Below are positions 8,833 to 57,604 of a stretch of 64,000 bases of DNA, one piece after another. Position 1 is the stretch's first letter. Each line of letters starts with the position of its first letter. Where the stretch lies: the NCBI GenBank assembly GCA_951406725.2, contig OX597827.1:26660001-26724000 (forward strand), given 5' to 3'. Below the pieces are notes generated by a model that saw nothing but the letters and a program-made list of their open reading frames with translations, had not been told where the DNA came from and did no database searches. Source of the DNA: Octopus vulgaris (Eukaryota). Made by a program: the position numbers and the translations under genes.

Positions 8833-8878
8833 AACACAACGTTTCGACTGATAAACCATCCAGCCTTCATCAGGTGTC
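8833..8878 (-). ncRNA. Minimal type-I hammerhead ribozyme motif (canonical core)
   Basis: Minus strand: stem I GACAC/GUGUU, CUGAUGA+A, stem II GGCUG/CAGUC, GAAA, palindromic stem III ACGU, GUU triplet. Lies within a ~8760-8925 repeat. Confidence 0.75.
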
Positions 8879-8930
8879 TTGCGGAAATTTCGAATCTGGA
8901 TTCTCATTCCTAAAGTATTTTACGATGTTG

Positions 8931-19981: not shown

Positions 19982-21148
19982 CCATCATCCTATCGTCATC
20001 ATCATCATCACCATCCTCCTCATCATCATCAACATCATCACCATCATCATAATCATCACCATCACCATCATCGTCATCACCATCATCATCATCATCATCA
20101 TAGTCATCATCATCACCATCATCATCATAGTCATCATCATCACTATAGTCATCATCATCAGTACCACTATCACTGTCGTCAAAACCATCACCGCCATCAC
20201 CATCATCACAACTACCACCGTTATCACCACCACCACCACTACCACCTCTGCTACTATTGCTAGTTAACTTTTAGTGACCTTCATTAACACCTATTCCGTT
20301 ACGAGAACAACTAAAAACAGCAGCAGTAACACCTCCACCACCACCTCCAATACCATCCACATCACCATCATCACCATCATTACCACCGCCAGCACCACTG
20401 CCGCCACCACTAATACATACCATTAGTGCCATCTCCAGCACCCGTGATATTATCACCACCTCCACACCAGCAGCACCACCACATCCACCGCCACCCGAAA
20501 TAACCACCCTCACCATGATTCGAACCCTCCCCAACTATCTAACCCGCATTTGCATCTTCTAATACAGTTATGGTTGATGTTCAGGTTGCTGCTTCTGCTG
20601 TTGTTGTTGCTGTTATTGTTGTTGTTGTTGCTGTTGTTGTTACTACCTCCACCTTAGCGAAGGCGGAGGTATTGTTTTCAGTCATATTTGTTTGTCCGTG
20701 GACAAGATATCTCAAGAACCGCTGGATGGATTTGGATAAAACTTTCAGGGATGTTTGGCCTCGTGCCTAGCACGAACTGATTAGATCTTAGTATCAATCC
20801 TGTACCGGACAAGGATTCTGGGTAATCTTTCTTGTTCTTTCTTTTACTTAAGTTTTGAGATCGGTTGGGTTCATTTTTATTATTCTCGTTTGTGAGAGCA
20901 GTCGAATATATTGCAGATATTCTCATCTTAAAAATCATCTCTGGCTAAGCGTTCTGTGACTGCTCTTGTTGTTGTTGTTGTTGTTGTTATTGTTGTTGTT
21001 ACTTCTGCTGTTGATGTTATTCTTGCTTCTGTTGTTGTTTTTGTTGCTTCTGTTGTCGTTGTTGTTGTCGTTATTGCTGTTATTGTTGTTGTTGTATTTG
21101 TTGTCGCTGTTGTTAGGTTCCGTTATTTGGCTTAAATATTAATATTAC

Positions 21149-21244
<96 letters not shown>

Positions 21245-21245
21245 A
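18590..21245. repeat. Trinucleotide low-complexity field (GAT/GGT, then CAT/CAC, then GTT/ATT)
   Basis: Directly visible. Confidence 0.9.
20645..20960 (+). mobile_element. Helentron-associated (HINE/DINE-like) non-autonomous element, truncated
   Basis: Terminal hairpin acctccacctt-agcg-aaggcggaggt, then tttgtttgtcc...ggatggatttggataaaactttcagg, a layout typical of this class. Confidence 0.45.
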
Positions 21246-21249
21246 GTAT

Positions 21250-21645
21250 GGTTGCGAATTGGCTGAAATCCTTAGCACGTTGCACCAAATGCTTAGCGGT
21301 ATTTCGTCTGTCGTTACGTTGAGAGTTCAAATTCCGCCGAGGTCGACTTTGCCTTTCATCCTTTCGGGTCGATTAAATAAGTACCAGTTACGCACTGGGG
21401 TTGAAATAATCGAGTTAATCCGTTTGTATGCCCTTGTTTGTCCTCTCTGTGTTTAGCCCCTTGTGAGTAGTAAAGCAATAGGTATTTCGGCTCTCGCTAC
21501 ATTCTGAGTTCAAATTCTGCCGAGATCGACTTTGCCTTTCATTCTTTCAGGGTCAATAAATTAAGTACCAGTGAAATACAGGGTCATTCTAACCAACTGC
21601 TACCCTCCCCCAAAATAGCTGCTCTTGTGGCAAAATTTGAAACCA
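21250..21645 (+). mobile_element. SINE family A, duplicated form
   Basis: Colinear with 4103-4503. Confidence 0.8.
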
Positions 21646-21649
21646 TTAT

Positions 21650-22054
<405 letters not shown>

Positions 22055-22589
22055 TTGAGTGAGAGAGCAGTGCATGCCATCAATGTGACACTAGGGTACA
22101 AATATACGAAGCCCAGTATACCCATCATGACTACCCGTCTCATAAGGGTACACCAGGCACTTGCATCACAACCATATGTACACGACATGGTGATCTCATA
22201 TCAAGATAGACAGCGTATGACATTGCAGGTGGGGCTCAGTTAGAATTTCCTTCTGGTCGTGTAGCCCATCCCGCTCAAAAAGTCCCCGAATAAGGGTTGT
22301 TTAAGGATGTTGAACGAAACACCTATGTTTCCAGAGGGGAATTATTCAAACTCCAAAAGAATCCCTCTCAACACATGGTTATGATGCTCCCCAACTACTT
22401 CTGCTCCTGATCAGAGATGCACATATCGTCAGCCACTAAGGGACATGCTCAACTGGTGAAGGTCAAACAACTGACAAGCAAATCTGTGGTATTAAGCAGA
22501 ATATTTGCTGTAGCCCATCTTTTATACCAAGGGAAAACAATGTAGAGGATAATACTTCTAATCAGAATATATATTCATATATATATATA

Positions 22590-22870
22590 CTCTTTTACTT
22601 GTTTCAGACTTATTTTTTAATCGTAGTACTTATTCTATCAGACTCTTTTACCGGTTGTCAAGAGGTGATGGTGCGGGGGCGAATAAACATAGACACAAAA
22701 TGAGACACATAGATATATACACATATATACGACGGGCTTGTTTCAGTTTCCGTCTACCAAACCCACTCGGAAGGCTTTGGTTGGCCCCAGGCTATAGTGG
22801 AAGACACTTGCCCAAGGTTCCAAGCAGTGGGACTGAACCCGGAACCATGTTGTTGGGAAGCAAGCTTCTT
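22590..22870 (-). mobile_element. SINE family B with deletions
   Basis: gacacttgcccaagg...gggactgaacccggaaccatg. Confidence 0.75.
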
Positions 22871-23600
22871 ACGCATTTTTCTTTAATATATTTCCTTCGT
22901 CTTTTACCATTTCATGTTTGTCTTTCCCTTTCATCTTTCTAACATAAATTCTTATTCATTTCATTTAATTTATTTTTAAATCACAACCCATTAATAAAAG
23001 AACTATTTTAAAAATTTTATTATATTTATTTTCTCCTTTTATGTACAACAGAGTGTTTTTTTCGTTTTTTTCTCAAAGCATTAATGGAATAATTTTTACC
23101 ATATTTTAACCCCACCCCTCTCATTTAATCATGCATGACAACAAAGACAAAATAACATAAACATATACATCAAAATAAAAGCTAAAACAAAAAACACTAC
23201 ACTGTCACTATTTACTTTTTAAGTTGCTATCACATGTTACGGCTGGTCGCCAGATTTTGTCCAACAAAGAAGATGGCAAAGAAAAGAAGAAAAGAAAATA
23301 GATTTGTATTAGCAATATTGATTCGCTTCTTGTTTGTCACAATGAAGGAAACAAGCACTCGCACACACTCACGCAGGCGCAGGCACACACACGAATACAA
23401 ACGCATGCGCACGCACACACACACATACACACACACAGACGTCCGCACACAGTTGCTCACATGCATTCGTGCGCACTTGCACGCACGGAGCAAAGAACGA
23501 CAGCAAATAAAGACAATCGGCATCATCGATTGACGTCCGTTATCCATGCTGACATGGGTTGGACGGAGATATATAAAAGAAATAGAGATGTAAAGCAGTC

Positions 23601-23637
<37 letters not shown>

Positions 23638-23744
23638 GTGTCTGTATGTATGAATATTTAAGGACGTGTAGAGGCATACGTATATATGCTTCTGTGTATA
23701 TATGTATCTATGTGTGTGTGTATGTGTATATATACATATATATG

Positions 23745-23788
<44 letters not shown>

Positions 23789-23790
<2 letters not shown>

Positions 23791-24000
23791 CGCAGCAGTG
23801 GCTGTGTAGTAAGAAGCCTGCATGGTTCTGGGTTCAGTCCCATTGCGTGGTACCTTGGGCAAGTATCTTCCACTCGCCTCGGGCCGACCAAAACCTTGTG
23901 AGTGGAAACTGAAAGAAGCCTGTCATGTATATGTGTGTGTTCGTATTTATTTGTGTGTTTGTGTTTATCGCCCCACCATCTCTTGACAACACACAGTTAT
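23789..24000 (+). mobile_element. SINE family B, 5' part
   Basis: ggcgcagcagtggctgtgtagtaag...gggttcagtccc...accttgggcaagt. Confidence 0.75.
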
Positions 24001-24089
24001 CGGTTGTAATGCGATGGCAGGGTGACAAACACTCACACTCACGTTCGCGCGCGTGTGCATGTATGTATATACTTCTATACTTTTACACC

Positions 24090-24376
24090 TTAACTTGTTT
24101 CAGTTATTTCACTGAGGTCATTTTGCCGAAACGCTAAGATATGAGGGCGTAAATTCAACAGCATCGGTTGTCAAGCGATGGAGTGGAGGGACAAATAAAG
24201 ACACACAAATACATACATATATATACGGCGGGCTTTTTCAGTTTCCCTCTATCAAATCCACTTACAAGGCTTTGGTCGGCTATCGCAGAAGACACTTGCC
24301 CAAGGTGCCACACAGTGGGACTGAACCCGGGACCAAGTGGTTGGGAACCAAGCTTCTCACCACACAGCCACTCCTA
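24090..24376 (-). mobile_element. SINE family B
   Basis: Reverse-complement copy, inverted relative to 23789-24000. Confidence 0.75.
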
Positions 24377-24689
24377 TGAGTGTGTGTGTGTGTGTACACT
24401 CCCTTATACTTACACATATACATATGTAACAATTCATATGATAATTACAAAATATTTAAAGGGCAACCATTGATGGCCCTCCGTCGGTTACGACAAGTTT
24501 TCCAGTTGATGCGATCAACAGAACAGCCTACTTGTGAAATTAAAGTCCAAGTGGTTGAGTACACCATAGACACGTGAAGTGTTAGCGTAGTATTCAGAGA
24601 CTTTCAGCGTGACACAGAGTGTGACCAGACTTGCCCCTTTTGAATTACAGGTACTATTCACATTTACCTGCTGAATGAACTGGAGCAGC

Positions 24690-24860
24690 GTTTCGGGACT
24701 TTTCGTTCGATTTTTCGTTCTGACTTCAAATTCCACCGACGTCCACTTTGCCTTTCATTATTTCGTGATCTTTAAAATAAATACCAGTTGAATACTGGGG
24801 TCGATGTAATTGACTTACACACTTCGACCAATTGCTGGCCTTGTGCCAAAATCTGAAATA
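24690..24860 (+). mobile_element. SINE family A, 3' part
   Basis: ttcaaattccaccgacgtccactttgcctttcat...ggggtcgatgtaat. Confidence 0.7.
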
Positions 24861-25290
24861 ATTATTTATTTATTTATTTATTTATTTAATTATTTACTTA
24901 CTTTCGTTTTCTTTCGGTGTGTCCGTATTAAAAGACGCTAATGAGCAGTTTACGGCAATGGTGTCCTTAGTTATTCAATTTCCCCCTTCTTCCTTTTCCT
25001 TTATAATCAAAATAAACAAACAAAAATAACAATAAGCAACAAAGAAAGAAAAAAGAACAAAGATAAAAAAATAAAGAGTGCAAATAAAAATACAAAAAAA
25101 ACAAGCAAATTCTTTGGCTTTTCATCTCGATGCCATCTGAGGTTCTTTAGTGTTATTTGATGCGCATTTATTGGGGAGTAAATTGGTATTTAAACCAGTT
25201 CGATTTCAGATCGATATTACAATGAAATTTTTGTGTTATGCGGTTGTTAATTAACGAGCGAAGCATCATCAGAACCCTGCCGCTTGCATT

Positions 25291-25365
<75 letters not shown>

Positions 25366-25454
25366 GTGTGTGCGTGTAATTATAGTGACCGCGTGTGTAC
25401 CGTTGGCGATTTTTTTCCTCTCTCTTCCCTTCTCTGGATCTTTCCTTCTCCTAT

Positions 25455-25489
25455 GTTTCCGACGAAGAGCTCCGCTCGAAACGTAAAAC
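25455..25489 (+). ncRNA. Minimal hammerhead motif, U4C core variant
   Basis: Stem I GUUU/AAAC, CCGACGA+A, stem II GAGC-UCC-GCUC, GAAA, stem III ACGU, GUA triplet. Lies in a ~25380-25590 element between (TG)n and (TA)n. Confidence 0.6.
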
Positions 25490-25693
25490 CGTCCTTCTCC
25501 CTTCCTTCCTGAGCGTCCAATAATACTATATTTGTTCCACGTCCTCGCGTTGTTGTGTTTTCTCCTTCTGTTTTCATATTTGGATTAACTATATATATAT
25601 AATGGTTGTATACTGTCAATCTCTCTCTCTATATATATATAAGAAATATTGAATTTCTAAATCTCTCGTAGAGACCTGTACGGTGGTGGGGCG

Positions 25694-25959
25694 ATAGAAT
25701 GGTTGTATACTGTCAATCTAACAAGAACGTGACAGTAGGGGGTACACCACCGTTGTATAGCCCTAGGAGGCATCGAACGCCTCCTGACAGTTCGACACAT
25801 TTTTTCCCTGTGTCCTTCGTATGTGTCCTTATATACATATACGAAGGACACAGGGAAAAATGTGTCGAAGCTGTCAGGAGGCGTTCGATGCCTCCTAGGG
25901 CTATACAACGGTGGTGTACCCCCTACTGTCACGTTCTTGTTAGATTGAAAGTATACAAC

Positions 25960-25967
<8 letters not shown>
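25694..25967. repeat. Near-perfect palindrome with ~133-bp arms (probable inverted PLE terminal repeats)
   Basis: 25694-25826 is the reverse complement of 25835-25967, with few mismatches. (TA)n flanks. Confidence 0.9.
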
Positions 25968-26001
<34 letters not shown>

Positions 26002-26077
26002 TGCAGCGTGGAAGGTGTTTGTAAGTCATTTAAGAAACACAAAAAGCCGTTCGATTCACTTCAACATTTAAGTTTAA

Positions 26078-26128
26078 TTTGTCAAAATATTTTCGTCGCT
26101 TTAAGACCGCGACCTGTTCACTGACAAA
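26078..26128 (-). ncRNA. Hammerhead motif, G3-C8 variant (left arm)
   Basis: UUUGUCA-GUGAACA-G-GUCGC..GCGAC-GAAA-AUAUUU-UGACAAA. Confidence 0.65.
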
Positions 26129-26136
26129 TATCCGTT

Positions 26137-26187
26137 TTTGTCAGTGAACAGGTCGCGGTCTTAAAGCGACGAAAATATTTTGACAGA
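26137..26187 (+). ncRNA. Hammerhead motif, G3-C8 variant (right arm)
   Basis: UUUGUCA-GUGAACA(26144-26150)-G-GUCGC..GCGAC-GAAA(26171-26174)-AUAUUU-UGACAGA. Confidence 0.65.
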
Positions 26188-26322
26188 TTAAACTTAAATG
26201 TTGAAGTGAATCGAACGGCTTTTGTGTGTTTCTTAAATGGCTTACAAACACCTTCCACGCAGCAATTGTTTTCGTTTCAGCACACGATCTCAGATCAAAT
26301 CATTTGCTACGCAAGTACATCT

Positions 26323-26389
<67 letters not shown>

Positions 26390-26434
26390 AGCAATCATCT
26401 AAACGTTTTTTGTGCATTTTGATGTTGACATAAG

Positions 26435-26533
26435 TTCCTTGCTTTTCCTGATGAGAAAGCGGCATAATGTACTCCTCATTCCTTCGCAATTAGGAATATG
26501 CAGCCTTCGAAACCTATGTCGAAAATAAAGGAA
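26435..26533 (+). ncRNA. Type-I hammerhead motif with extended stems I and II
   Basis: Stem I UUCCUU..UUUUC/GAAAA..AAGGAA, CUGAUGA 26448-26454, stem II GAAAGCGGCAUA/UAUGCAGCCUUC (2 mismatches), GAAA, GUC triplet at 26518-26520. Confidence 0.75.
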
Positions 26534-26571
26534 TTTTGTTAATTCGTCGTTCAACTCCATTCTTTCATATA

Positions 26572-26613
<42 letters not shown>

Positions 26614-26676
26614 CACGCACACACACACATACATGCACACACATATACATACACATACATATATATACATACATAA

Positions 26677-26707
<31 letters not shown>

Positions 26708-26739
26708 AATATACATACATACATATACATATATATATA

Positions 26740-26782
<43 letters not shown>

Positions 26783-27341
26783 CCTATACATCTTACACAC
26801 AGATAGACACACGGCAAAAAGCATATATATAACTATACATATATGTATACATGTGTGTGTGTATGTGCGTTGTGTATCCTTTATATGTGTATGTGTATAT
26901 ATATATATACACATATGTACATAATTGCACTTGTGTGTGCATATGTATCTCTGTGGGCATTATATAACATACGTATAAATATTTATATATGCAGACCTAT
27001 ATTTTCTACAGATATATAAACACAATCGCTCGTGGTCCCCTGCTGTCATAGTGAGAGTTAAATATGTTTATCAGACATAAAATGTATACTGTGCATGATA
27101 ATGTAACAGCTAAAATATAGAATATTATGTTTATTCTAAAATTTCAGATATTTACATATTGTAACTTTTATATGCATATCCATGCCTATATCATCACAAA
27201 CATGGTGTATAAATAAGCCCATATATATATAAAGTTCACAGTTTAGGTGTAGCCTTGGAAAGAAAAACCTACAAAAAAGACCAAGGTCACCTCAGACAGT
27301 TTGAAAATGAACACATCAGTAAGTCACCTTGTCTCTTTTGG

Positions 27342-30300
27342 TTACAGATTTATGGTGTCGTCTTTCATACTGACCATTTTTGCTACTTTTACCCACTTTT
27401 TATTAAAACATTCGTTCGACAAAGCCTTCCTCTCTATTCTCATCCTCCTTTTCAAGTGGTACTTGAAAAAGTTGACGAGGGACTGACCAGAGAGGAAGGT
27501 GTTTGTTTGCAGTCCTTTCAAACGCGTCCACCACACACATTCTTTTGCCATAGCCATCAGCGTAACGAAAACCGTTTTCCCTTCCCGTTTAAAGGAAGGT
27601 GGTGGAACAATATTCACGATAGACTCGGCCGATAAGCGGGCCCGTCCTACACGCGACAACAGCTGTTCGACGAAGGTCCACAGCTCTGAAATATCTGGAC
27701 ACTGCACGATGCGTGCAGAACGGTTTCGTCGCTCTGACCGCATCTCGGGCAGGTCGGTCCGGTGATGGTCTTCGAACCGTGCCTGTAGCTTTTCTCTCGA
27801 ACAGGTAGTGCGTCTCTATAGCATTGCCAAGCCAAGGATTTCTGGAAGCTATCCACAGACCCAACGTCGTCCTGAACTGGCGGGCTAGGAATTTCTCGTC
27901 GACGCCCAGGTTTGCCCCGAGTGTGTCGTCGGACCTCCCCGCCACTAGTCCTCTATAGAACGCTTTAGTCGTTTATAAGTTGCACAAGTTTGACCCCGGT
28001 CGGCAAAGCTGCTGTAGAGCTTGGCGACACTCTCGGTGCCAATCACCCAGTTTCGGTCTCTTCTTGATCCACGTTTGCAGTTCGGTCAGTGAGACGAGCC
28101 TCACAAACGGCGCCCACAGCTGTTCACCGTCATCGATGAAGTTCCAGAGATGTCACAGTCTCATCGCATGCCTGCGCATCATCGACCACGGCATGCCCAG
28201 TCCTCCATTCAACGGATGTTGACAGCAAATGGACTTCCTCACCATCGAAACGCCACCCTTCCAAATGAAGCGGAAGAGTATGCGTTCCAGTTTGGTGATG
28301 GTGGCGTCGGGACAAGGCACGACGGTCAGGCGGTAATCGATGACGGATGCGATGTACGCGTTCGCCACCTCCGCCCGACCTTTTAGAGACAGCTTTCTCT
28401 CGGCCCATGTTTGGCTGAGAGCGACCACTCTACTCGTGATCTCGTCCCAGTTCTTATCCATTTGGAGGTCCGGACTGAACCAGACCCCGAGCAATTTAAC
28501 CGGTCCGTCCGTCCAGCGTCCCACTACTGACCCGCAGTCGGACGGCATGGGCTTGCTTCTCCAGGTACCGAGTAGCAAACCCACTGACTTTTCCGGGTTA
28601 ATTTTCGCTCCCGTCACCATTTCGTATTTTCTTAGTGTCTCGCCTATCATCTGGATGTGTTTTTCGCTCGACACTATGACGGTGACATCGTCCGCATATA
28701 CTGACACGCTCGTCCCGCAACCCAGTTCCCGTGGATGCCCCTCAGTGTCGCCAGCTTCTGCAGTAGCGGCTCGAGAGTCAATACATACAGAAGCGCCGAC
28801 AGAGGACACCCCTGACGGACCGAACGCGTGATGTCAAACGGTTTCGACAGGTGACCGTTCACCCGAATCACCGATCGGATGCCGCGATACAAGGCAGCGA
28901 TCAACCGCGGAAGACGGGACCGAAGCCAGCCGCCCTGAGGACGGCCGCCAAGTACCGATGGTCGACCCTATCGAAGGCTTTAGACTGATCCAAATTGATC
29001 AGCGCCCCACCCATGCCAGGATCCTTAACTACTCTGTCCACAATGTAGCGCATCAGATGGAGGTTGTCATGTATCGTTCTGCCCGGCACGGCGCATATTT
29101 GCGCCCTGTCGACCAGTTTACCAATGACAAGCGCCAACCTCTCGGCTATTACTTTGGCCAAAATTTTCAAATCTGCGTTGAGCAGAGTGATGGCCCTGAA
29201 ATTATCTATAAAATTCCCCTTGTTTGGGTCTTTCTTCAGCAACGTCACTGCACCTCGGCTCACGAAACCGGGGATTCTTCTGTTTTGTTGCCAGTTGCAG
29301 TAGACTGATGCCAAGAGGTCGCCAAACAAGTCTGGTATTTGACAATACAGCTCTTAAGGTAAACCATCCAATCCAGGCGACTTATCCCTCGCGCTGCCAG
29401 CCATCGCATCCCGCACGTCAGCAGCTGGGATGGGACTTTCACAACACTCCGCTTCTCTTCCCGAGAGCCGCGGCAGGTCGGTCAGGTAGGCACTGAAATC
29501 CATCCCGCGTTCCGACCCACCACTCGCACCAAACAGTCAAGCAAAGTGCTGTTGAAAGGTCTCACACATCCTTTCGGGTTCGAGTAAACTGCATCCCTGT
29601 TGATCAATTAGAGACCGAATGGTGGCTCTGCTGCCACGTTGCGCCTCTGCTACCCGGGCCTCTCGCGCAGCTTCGATCCCTTCGTTCCTTCGTGTTTGGC
29701 GTTGAGGTGTTGGTCGAGGGCCATCCTCGCAGCCAGCACGTTGGTTGCGCTGCCAGTGGTAAGTGCCTCTTCTAGTTTCTTAACCAGGTCTCCCTCTACC
29801 CTATTTCGATCTATCGCTAATTCCTTGCTAAACCTAATTGATTCCGATTTTATTGCCATTTTCAAGGCGAACCACCAGCGGTTGTTAACGACGGCTCCCG
29901 CCGACGCCCTCTTAATTAACTCGCTAATCCGGTTCCTGTAAACCTGTCGCGCTAAGAGCGACGTGTTCAGTTTCCAGTAGCCAGGACCCTGTCTATGTGT
30001 CTTATCTAAGTCGAGCGTACACGTCACAAATTTGTGATCTGTGTAGCTGACTATTTTAAATTGTGGACATCCTACACTATCCCTATCCGCTGTCCTGCAT
30101 AGAATTCTATCTAGATAAGATCTCGACGATCCGACGTGATTTGTCCAAGTCCACGTTGGCATGTTCGGATGGTCGAGTCGGAACCTTTCAGACAACTGGA
30201 AACGTCTGAGTAGGTCTCTGAGGCACTTACACTCCCTTCTATTCCTATCCATTCCCATATAGTCTAGATGCGTGTCCAAGGTAGCGTTCCAATCCCCTAC

Positions 30301-30771
30301 TAACAGTAAAGGTCTAGACGTACCCAGGAAAACCTCTAGACGTCTGAAGAAATCTGCCCGACCCGTTAAGGACGGCGCATAAACTGCCATCAGACGGAAT
30401 GCACACCCATTTCTGCCATCCACGTCCAAGACAACCAGCCTACCCTCCGGGTCTAGGAATATTGTTCTTACTTTTACATTTAGACTCTTTCGAAAAAGTA
30501 CCGCGTTACCTCCACCACCCATGTTCGGCAGACAGGGAGAAAAATAAATGTCGAATTGCTCGCCAAACATGGACGCGAGGGCCCGCGGCTTGCTGAGTCT
30601 GGTTTCACTGATAGCTACTATATCCACGTTCAGTGACTTGATGTCGTTTAGAAGGTAACCTTGCTTCCAAGCCGACGCCAAGCCACGCACATTCACACAA
30701 CCTAATTTAAAGCATAATTGATGTTTAAGAAATTGTGTTTCACACACTACATTGAAAGAGACAAGAGGCAT
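27342..30771 (-). pseudogene. Tx1-type ORF2 (APE endonuclease, RT, zf-RVT), multiple frameshifts
   Basis: Motifs NVRGL, ISET, VYAP, GDWN, SYLDRI, TDHK; FRAITLLNADLKIL, DQSKAFDRVDH, VRQGCPLS, YADD; CPRCGQSDETVLH. Confidence 0.93.
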
Positions 30772-30789
30772 GAGGGAAGGTCACTTACT

Positions 30790-32450
30790 CATTTCGAAAG
30801 TTTCTGTTTTTTCTTCTTCTTTTGTAATGTCTTTGAGGAGGTGTTTGAATAGTTTCTTTGATAAGTATTTTTGAAACCCCTCTACCGCATTTGGAAATAT
30901 TGTGTTTGTGTTATGTGTACAATTCTTATGTGTTTCGGTGGTGTAGTGCTTGGATGATTATTTATCTTAAAGTCATCTTCACAGATGTTCGTGTTGGATG
31001 CAATGTATTCCATTAGTTTTTTATTGTCCGTGTCTATTGCTGTTAGTTGTGTGTGTGGTTTTGCGTGGTCATTGATGTTTTGATTGTCTAAGGGGATGCT
31101 GTCCGGAGTTAAATATCTCCCTGCTTTACTTACTTGTTTGGTCGGCTTTTTTTTTATCTTTTCCTTTTACCCCCCCCCCCCGTGGTTATTTGCCATTCCG
31201 TCGAACTTTTGTCGTTGGACGAAGAGTCCGACGAATCAGAAGGGGGTAAAGGCACAGTATTTGCGTTAATATGTATGTTTGTATGTTGTATGTTGGTGTT
31301 TTTGCGGTGTTTGTGTTGTGTGGTGTTAGGGGTAGAATTTGTCTTCTTGTCACTGTTTTCTGTTTTTTTGTTGTCGTCCTTGGTGCTGGTGTTGGTCTGC
31401 CTTTTGGTGTTGGTTTTGGTTTAGTATTTTTAATTGGTTGCGACGTCAACGGTGATTGTGTTGGTGCTGTTTCTTTTCTTGGTTATGTTGGGGTTTGTTT
31501 GCTGGTTTGTTGTTTTTCTTGGCATTGTTCCATAATTGAGTGTGGTGGTGTTGGTAACAAAGGTTTTTTATTTGTTTTCTGATTTGTTCTTTCTTGTTTT
31601 TTCTGTCCCAGAACGCACTTCGCAAATAAGTGTTCTGGACTGCCACAGTTGTAGCATCTTGGCTTTTTCCCTTCTGCTACAACATATGGGCTTTGCCCAT
31701 TTTCCAAATGAATGCTATTTGGTAGGTTCTCGATAGAGGACCCATCAATCTGAATGGTTACCTCTATTGTTTTACCACCCCAATTGTCATTTTTGAATAC
31801 GGTGATTTCTAAAATATCTATCGTTTTTAAATGATAACATATCGCCGATGTTATCCATTTATTAGGTATCTCCGGCGGTACATTTTTTATTTTAATTTTA
31901 CTGACTCTTTGGTTTCTGTAATAAGGAATCATTATTAGTTCATCGTTTTGTAAAGTTTCTGTCGAGTGGGCTTTTGCCACTTCCTGGTTAGGGAAGCGGA
32001 CCACCACTGTATTAAACTGGTGACCCCAGTTTATGTATTCTTTTACTTACATTATTTTTATAGCACATTTCTCTATTTCTGTTTTGATTATTTGTTCGTT
32101 TTGTTCTTTGTTTTTTTCTAATAATTCTATATATAATTGGGTTTTTTTCTATTTCTTCCTGAATGTGTTGAGGTGTAAGTAATACCAAATCTTGTCCTGG
32201 GGTTGTGAAGAGTGATCTTGTCTCTATCAACTCTTCATTTGTGAACTTTATAATTTCTTTTTTCTGACGCAAGGTGTCAGCGAAATTCACAGTTCTATTC
32301 TGGCAGTTGCTGTCGTTGTGTATTTTTGTTGTTGTTGTGTCCGAAACATTCTTGGTCGTGGCTTTTTCTGGTACTGCAGTTTCTGTTATGTTAATATTAT
32401 CTTCACTATTGGATGATATAATATTTATTTCATTTTTGTTGTTGTTTTTC
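30790..32450 (-). pseudogene. Tx1-type ORF1 (gag-like, CCHC zinc knuckle), frameshifted
   Basis: IKIKNVPPEI...CYNCGSPEHLFAKC (CX2CX4HX4C) in ORF 31483-32007; boundaries approximate. Confidence 0.8.
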
Positions 32451-57140: not shown

Positions 57141-57604
57141 CATTAATCTACTTTATACGTGTTTAAAGAGTTATTTTATTAAACTCCAGACGCGTTTCGA
57201 CTCATCCAAATATCTTCAGTACTGTTGTTGAACTTCTGTATTTAAAGGGTAACATTATATTTGTATCAATGGCCTGTTCAGTTCTTTTATAATGTTATTT
57301 ACAGTGAAACTTGTATGCAGTTATAGAAATCAGATAAGATGAAGTATGAAGGTGAGACAGATTAAAGTGGTTTTCTTTTTTATATAACTTTATTCACTTT
57401 AACCCTTCACCTTTCATCTTATCCGATTTCTTAAACTACACAGATCTTTGAATGTAAATAACATTAGGTTTTAATTGAACACACCATTAATACAAATATA
57501 ATTTTCCTTTAAAAATCAGTCCACCAACTGTGCTGAATAGATCTGAGTGAATCTACTGGAGTTTAATAAAATAACTTATTAAATACATACAAAGTAGATT
57601 AATG
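57141..57604. repeat. Old diverged palindrome (~210-bp arms) with degenerate hammerhead
   Basis: cattaatctacttt/aaagtagattaatg, gttattttattaaactccag/ctggagtttaataaaataac, gaaatcagataagatgaa/ttcatcttatccgatttc. Confidence 0.75.

Follow-up and report, generated by a model that had tools for sequence, protein, structure and literature searches.

A Penelope-like element family of Octopus vulgaris carries a hammerhead motif with a flipped G3-C8 core pair and predicted ribozyme activity

A short palindromic insertion in the window (the whole 64,000-nt stretch of DNA analyzed here) carries a minimal hammerhead motif in which the tertiary pair between core positions 3 and 8 is G-C. This pair is well supported as a family trait of one Penelope-like element (PLE) family, herein family A, and ribozyme activity is predicted. 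The motif at this locus is confirmed as real: sequence, descriptor and fold agree that both arms of the palindrome hold a hammerhead topology with the core GUGAACA, as a sequence-only reading of this DNA had claimed. Its parts, in window coordinates and with the basis of each call in brackets, are as follows.

26137-26187, forward strand: type I minimal hammerhead, sense copy (sequence, descriptor, fold)
26137-26143 with 26181-26187, forward strand: stem I of the sense copy, 7 bp with one G-U, TTTGTCA/TGACAGA
26144-26150, forward strand: core GTGAACA of the sense copy, G3 to A9 (sequence)
26151, forward strand: extra G after A9 (sequence)
26152-26156 with 26166-26170, forward strand: stem II, GTCGC/GCGAC (sequence)
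26157-26165, forward strand: loop II (sequence)
26171-26174, forward strand: GAAA (sequence)
26174-26179, forward strand: palindromic stem III, AATATT (sequence)
26180..26181, forward strand: U17 and the predicted cleavage after it (placed by hammerhead numbering)
26144..26149, forward strand: flipped tertiary pair, G3 (26144) with C8 (26149) (family consensus, sister-family covariation)
26078..26128, reverse strand: inverted-arm hammerhead, same motif (G3 26121, C8 26116, U17 26085)

The sense copy has the stems I and II, GAAA, NUH site, palindromic helix III, extra nucleotide and G10.1-C11.1 pair of PLE minimal hammerheads; the consensus core CUGANGA is absent, with GUGAACA in its place. A relaxed descriptor, admitting any Watson-Crick 3-8 pair and a loop II of up to 40 nt, never matched this score in 60 shuffles (2-mer block) of the 64-kb window. 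The hammerhead fold of the 51-mer comprises stems I and II (z = -3.06; 0/200 shuffles as good); in its MFE structure stem I is lengthened by a wobble pair, G3•U17, and the duplex of stem III amounts to only -0.2 kcal/mol. An Rfam scan of positions 20000-32000 at E ≤ 1 returned no hammerhead match, only microRNA-type hits arising from hairpins and microsatellites, in line with the expectation that CUGANGA-based searches would miss the motif. Other hammerhead-like sequences are visible in the window: a minimal hammerhead at 25455-25500 (forward strand) with a U4C core (CCGACGA-A), a GAGC/GCTC stem II and an ACGT palindrome, seen also at locus L126; a canonical CUGAUGA minimal hammerhead with an ACGT palindrome at ∼8835-8880 (reverse strand); and, by eye only, a possible canonical type I remnant with a long stem II at 26424-26530 (forward strand; CTGATGA ... 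GAAAC ctat GTC).

The insertion that holds the motif consists of the following.

25999..26324, no strand assigned: short PLE insertion of family A, subfamily A1, an inverted 5′-truncated copy plus a sense copy with tail, with (TA)n flanks
25999..26132, reverse strand: inverted arm, up to the proximal 3′ end, containing the ORF start codon at 26029-26027
26237..26324, forward strand: 29 initial codons of the PLE ORF (MAYKHL..., by translation), reaching the distal insertion end
26268..26324, forward strand: PLE "tail" of ∼57 nt, in one arm only, between the two preferred 3′ ends

The arms are complementary at 99% over 87 nt (26042-26128 and 26137-26223), and the entire palindrome (25999-26267) at 94.8%. 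Such an inverted-arm palindrome is the ordinary pLTR (pseudo-LTR) insertion form of family A: an anchor placed downstream of the cut has 4,505 matches, the first 100 of which include 42 divergent close pairs, and a long plus a short arm were found in 45/52 inverted-pair rows among all family A loci examined. The sequence-only reading had described paired hammerheads and had taken their presence in both arms as a sign of selection. Two motifs are indeed there, but as one sense and one antisense copy rather than two sense copies, and the extra G at 26151 had gone unmentioned. Because the hammerheads lie on opposite strands, no dimer can form in cis within one transcript, and read-through RNA of the palindrome is computed to fold back on itself at about -219 kcal/mol, a hairpin that buries the sense motif; with the inverted form being routine, presence in both arms is a weak argument for selection and is not upheld. 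In 7/51 distinct inverted pairs (L022, L150, L154, L166, L168, L349 and L366; nine flagged rows minus one duplicate and one misaligned), the two arms differ in their multi-nucleotide loop haplotype (A1 vs. A2). This discordance suggests that an insertion event uses two RNA templates, which a dimeric reverse transcriptase (RT) would permit; gene conversion may be an alternative source. An unrelated palindromic repeat adjoins the insertion at 25694-25967 (1,514 candidates); it too has an inverted arm, a tail and (TA)n flanks, as well as a stem plus GAAGCTGTC resembling a hammerhead 3′ half, and within it no recognizable CUGA core was seen and for it no partner ORF was found. A further long imperfect palindrome (72%) lies at 57141-57604.

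Walking upstream from the motif, we crossed a 3′ UTR of ∼1 to 1.5 kb and then met, in the same sense, a GIY-YIG domain and a YVDD RT. The longest open frame of family A runs to 1,025 aa, with the YVDD RT and, at its C terminus, a GIY-YIG domain; in a Pfam search of this ORF the latter was the only match (PF01541, 25.4 bits vs. a cut-off of 22.6), and no RT model was matched. At the tandem junction of L128 the order is pLTR, hammerhead, stop, ATG, ORF; tandem pLTR-ORF-pLTR copies are present at L128 and L036. The upstream walk and this junction bear out the earlier proposal of a PLE terminal-repeat hammerhead. Family A is an EN+ PLE with a single ORF encoding RT and C-terminal GIY-YIG, and it further displays pseudo-LTRs via partial tandems, an inverted 5′-truncated copy and a one-sided tail. 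In translation, the RT-EN linker reads CX3CX2C (CQSNCAVC), within the pattern CX2-5CxxC, and points to the Neptune/Nematis type, an assignment made from the linker. The ATG in the window that matches the ORF start of L128, where the ORF runs on in full, is at 26237, downstream of the motif; the hammerhead is therefore in the 5′ UTR, 57 nt ahead of the ATG and ∼24 nt past the 5′ pile-up described below. Coding constraint behind G3 and C8 was considered and rejected: the stop lies before the ATG at 26237, and subfamilies A1 and A2 differ by indels that break all frames across the motif, leaving the core unexplained by any reading frame. A broken LINE (27342-30780, reverse strand), in which AP-endonuclease and RT frames are seen, is unrelated to the hammerhead.

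The genome searched comprises 2.8 Gb in ∼31 large contigs. Among 584 candidates for copies of the right arm, 40 were scored, which gave at least 40 copies with an identity of at least 95%. Genome-wide, a 21-letter pattern that leaves positions 3 and 8 free has 6,144 matches (reversed control, 0); 5,645 of these (91.9%) are G3-C8 and none is C3-G8, so the genome-wide motif search returned the G3-C8 family consensus that the sequence-only reading had anticipated in place of CUGANGA. G3 with a base other than C at position 8 accounts for 330/6,144 and C8 with a base other than G at position 3 for 155/6,144; both positions are changed in 14/6,144, none of them C3-G8 or U3-A8. We rejected A3-U8 as a compensated sublineage, as its share (6/14 double variants) is in line with the two commonest transitions and the partner arms are G3-C8. 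No variant above 5% was seen at position 3 or 8 in four sequencing runs, which bear four organism labels that may stand for one species or close kin.

A mobilized G3·G8 minority lineage (L318-L366) makes up ∼142/6,144 matches (2.3%), vs. ∼0.25% for the mirror transversion; position-8 variants divide into 43 G vs. 41 T (first 100), and those at position 3 into 10 C vs. 61 A (p = 1.3e-6). G3·G8 copies are concentrated among older ones (30/39 classified, ∼5% diverged), reach 9/100 in the oldest loop class and drop to a few copies in young subfamilies. The lineage was thus copied and later dwindled. By analogy with the dead C3G mutant, to which it is equivalent, G3·G8 is predicted to be dead. We do not accept it as a proven ancestral intermediate, as the oldest loop class is already 73/100 G3-C8; it may instead be a derived lineage.

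Sister PLE families B, C and D, with N-termini 35 to 47% identical and RTs ∼45 to 55%, carry a homologous hammerhead scaffold at the corresponding site ahead of the ATG. Family B is young, with near-identical 1,312-aa ORFs, and has the core CUGAUGC, that is, C3-G8 with A9C, and a bulged stem I (L131:6383-6435, plus other loci). The family C core is UUGAAAA, with U3-A8 in 28/30 copies and a stem I of only 3 bp (L283:1555-1606; loci L263-L292; 3,213 first-look candidates). Family D is old and has the core CUGAAGA, with C3-G8 in 12 of the 17 copies readable by eye, of 25. All three states, C-G, U-A and G-C, thus occur within one PLE clade of one genome. A 14-row alignment, its rows picked by a pattern demanding intact stem II and with stems I and III of family C not in register, has Watson-Crick pairs at 3-8 in 14/14 cells (CG 6, GC 6, UA 2) and stem II paired in 70/70 cells with two compensated pairs. 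Its covariation score was reached by 0/500 shuffles, and slid controls were 22 to 48% paired vs. 90.5%; as the 14 rows stem from about four lineages, the independent changes at 3-8 number only two. U4 G5 A6 and G12 A13 A14 A15.1 are invariant across the families. In an unrooted within-genome tree of the N-termini, A and C each form supported clades and the branching order of A, B, C and D is unsupported. The claim that the 3-8 pair is maintained is thus sustained by the covariation analysis, and the sister-family covariation appears to be better evidence of selection than presence in two arms.

Within family A, columns varying by >10% number 0/42 in core and stems vs. 12/77 in loop and UTR (219 copies; p = 0.008), or p = 0.08 without loop II, in a count that left out position 8 (88% C; ten loci chosen as non-C) and one CpG column and placed the T-run gap outside stem I. 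Loop II, which in fast full-length hammerheads makes a tertiary contact with loop I, varies freely here, with at least six haplotypes; subfamilies alter loop II, not the core or the stems.

The genomic ends of the copies indicate which RNAs served as templates. Among 73 distinct arms (the first 81 matches minus 8 identical over 140 nt), 32 begin inside a 10-nt window at AGATG, ∼24 nt before G3, and 6 further upstream; only two, which share a single locus, begin close to the predicted cut. An extra G is present at 21/35 junctions that start exactly at AGATG (e.g., L058:1525; p = 2.5e-7 vs. 20%). An extra G at a 5′ junction is the pattern expected when a cap is copied. The AGATG pile-up and its extra G are thus likely a cap signature marking the start site of the element. 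Given these starts and the scarcity of starts at the cut, the templates were mostly uncut. A splice acceptor (upstream CTAAC...YAG) behind the pile-up is disfavored, the extra G fitting a capped start; no spliced joint at the pile-up is listed in four putative RNA runs, the contigs of which cover the motif, although contigs cannot show RNA ends. The 3′ ends are bimodal, at two positions ∼60 nt apart (30/73 and 39/73 arms); a tail signature of this kind is traced in the available text of PMC11167929 to two internal RT start sites.

Our preferred reading, to which we give a probability of roughly 0.55, is that the 5′-UTR hammerhead of family A makes a slow cut after U17 as a protein-assisted dimer, removing the capped leader or splitting tandem RNA late and not making the main template; cleavage is predicted. 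Transcription would start within the upstream pLTR, at the AGATG pile-up, and yield capped RNA. RT would bind the ORF start and begin copying at one of the two internal sites ∼60 nt apart, and run-off at the capped 5′ end would yield solo copies of 150 to 210 bp, often as inverted long and short pairs. Two RNAs brought together in the RNP would pair their AAUAUU palindromes, and G3-C8 would position the 2′-OH of nucleotide 8 as the general acid. The slow cut would then take off the capped 60-nt leader or divide tandem read-through RNA, so that the RNA is retired rather than prepared. U17 may avoid a Watson-Crick G3-C17 trap, analogous to the C3-G17 trap treated in part of PMC3884650. We count in favor of a slow cut the PLE membership, the family-wide G3-C8, the sister covariation, the steadiness of core and stems within family A, the lack of a conserved frame across the motif and the partial C3G/G8C rescue of another PLE hammerhead, and against it the 2/73 starts at the cut, the copied G3·G8, the A9C of family B, the G3•U17 wobble, the weak stem III, the higher p value once loop II is left out, the small number of independent changes at 3-8 and the insertion of PAc hammerhead mutants in vitro.

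Some of these points recur in the main rival, which we regard as possible though unlikely: a vestigial hammerhead whose stems I and II are kept as a 5′-UTR structural, promoter or RT-binding element, with G3-C8 fixed by drift or hitch-hiking in one master. Copies start at the cap-marked site and not at the cut, G3·G8 RNAs were copied and family B thrives despite A9C; a single master copy can fix any sequence across thousands of copies, hammerhead-less Naiads proliferate (part of PMC8557442) and, in the available text of PMC11167929, PAc hammerhead mutants insert normally. A plain hairpin, however, has no use for Watson-Crick pairing at 3-8 in all four families through three different pairs, nor for the invariant U4 G5 A6 and G12 A13 A14 A15.1, which serve the catalytic fold, and the thinning out of G3·G8, at 9% of the oldest loop class but a few copies among young subfamilies, also speaks against it.

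Returning to the slow cut, a joint reading that extends it is more doubtful still. One PLE clade would have walked the 3-8 pair through C-G, U-A and G-C, with a predicted-dead G3·G8 intermediate fossilized in old copies, and G3-C8 with U17 would be a selected slow timer; the discordant inverted arms would reflect a dimeric RT carrying two RNAs, a setting that would pair hammerheads via the palindromic stem III and switch cleavage on.

Distinctly improbable, in our estimate, is an efficient dimeric ribozyme through which tandem PLE transcripts yield templates of unit length or in circular form, a tandem-processing role that passages of PMC4209133 and PMC6765202 propose for PLE hammerheads generally. 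The full topology with palindromic stem III and the tandem copies at L128 and L036 suit such a role, but templates cut at U17 should give 5′ ends at sites equivalent to 26181, where the two arms of a single locus are the only candidates; the extra G at the AGATG junctions argues for capped, uncut templates, and a cut in the 3′ pLTR would part the RT start site from the ORF. That the two arms are a selected pair cooperating at this site has the intact motif in both arms to recommend it and is scarcely credible, given the opposite strands, the burying hairpin, the routine inverted form and a locus copy that is 5′-truncated, without the upstream promoter-side sequence.

If family A RNA cuts, it would be the natural counterpart, in thousands of copies, of C3G/G8C, a rescue mutant on which the case for the active hammerhead fold was partly built, and CUGANGA descriptors and Rfam would be overlooking whole ribozyme families. 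The sister cores (C-G, C-G with A9C, U-A and G-C) and the G·G lineage offer a ready allelic series in one genome that bears on whether cutting is needed by PLE hammerheads in the first place. The genomic record, with its capped 5′ ends, its pair of RT starts and its arms from different RNAs, lends independent support to the PLE mechanism described in vitro. Going by the title of a 2017 paper, Lünse, Weinberg and Breaker reportedly described PLE-linked hammerhead variants with a short stem III that cleave as dimers. No natural G3-C8 hammerhead was found in the literature searched; that paper and supplement file 1 of PMC4209133 lay outside its scope and may hold cases.

The closest relatives of the motif are the type I minimal hammerheads of PLEs in the available text of PMC4209133. 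Shared with them are the pLTR location, the extra nucleotide between 9 and 10.1, G10.1-C11.1, the palindromic minimal helix III, the frequent U17, thousands of solo copies and opposite-strand pairs 100 to 700 bp apart. Positions 3-6 are CUGA or UUGA in 56/56 representatives of its Fig. S3, whereas family A has G3, and the extra nucleotide, of consensus H there, is G here, with a helix I of 7 bp. The natural covariation at 3-8 reported in that text is U3-A8 only, in the Schistosoma mansoni Cercyon variant; natural U3-A8 hammerheads are also published in Perreault 2011 (part of PMC3088659). They share with family A the compensatory change at 3-8, and sister family C is itself U3-A8; in comparison, G3-C8 needs two transversions and places a pyrimidine at the general-acid position. 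Engineered C3G/G8C gives partial rescue according to parts of PMC8495972 and PMC11167929. Because natural U3-A8 and this engineered rescue, also in a PLE hammerhead, are published, the surprise attached to G3-C8 by the sequence-only reading was overstated.

That PLE hammerhead is the Anolis Poseidon PAc (Frangieh 2024, PMC11167929), of which the available text reports that cleavage needs protein, that C3G/G8C is partly active and that hammerhead mutants have no effect on insertion in vitro. Family A and PAc, by the same text, share a hammerhead where pLTR and ORF join, a pair of internal RT starts giving the tail, AT-rich targets and uncut RNA as the template. PAc differs in its natural C3-G8, its Poseidon clade and an ORF that begins inside stem II, whereas the motif of family A is non-coding and its linker, CX3CX2C, is of the Neptune/Nematis type. 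With EN+ PLEs of that type, as covered in parts of Craig 2021 (PMC8557442), family A shares the C-terminal GIY-YIG, the Zn-finger-like linker, the inverted 5′-truncated copy, the tail at one end and the (TA)n bias, the tail measuring ∼57 nt in family A vs. 30 to 40 bp in those elements.
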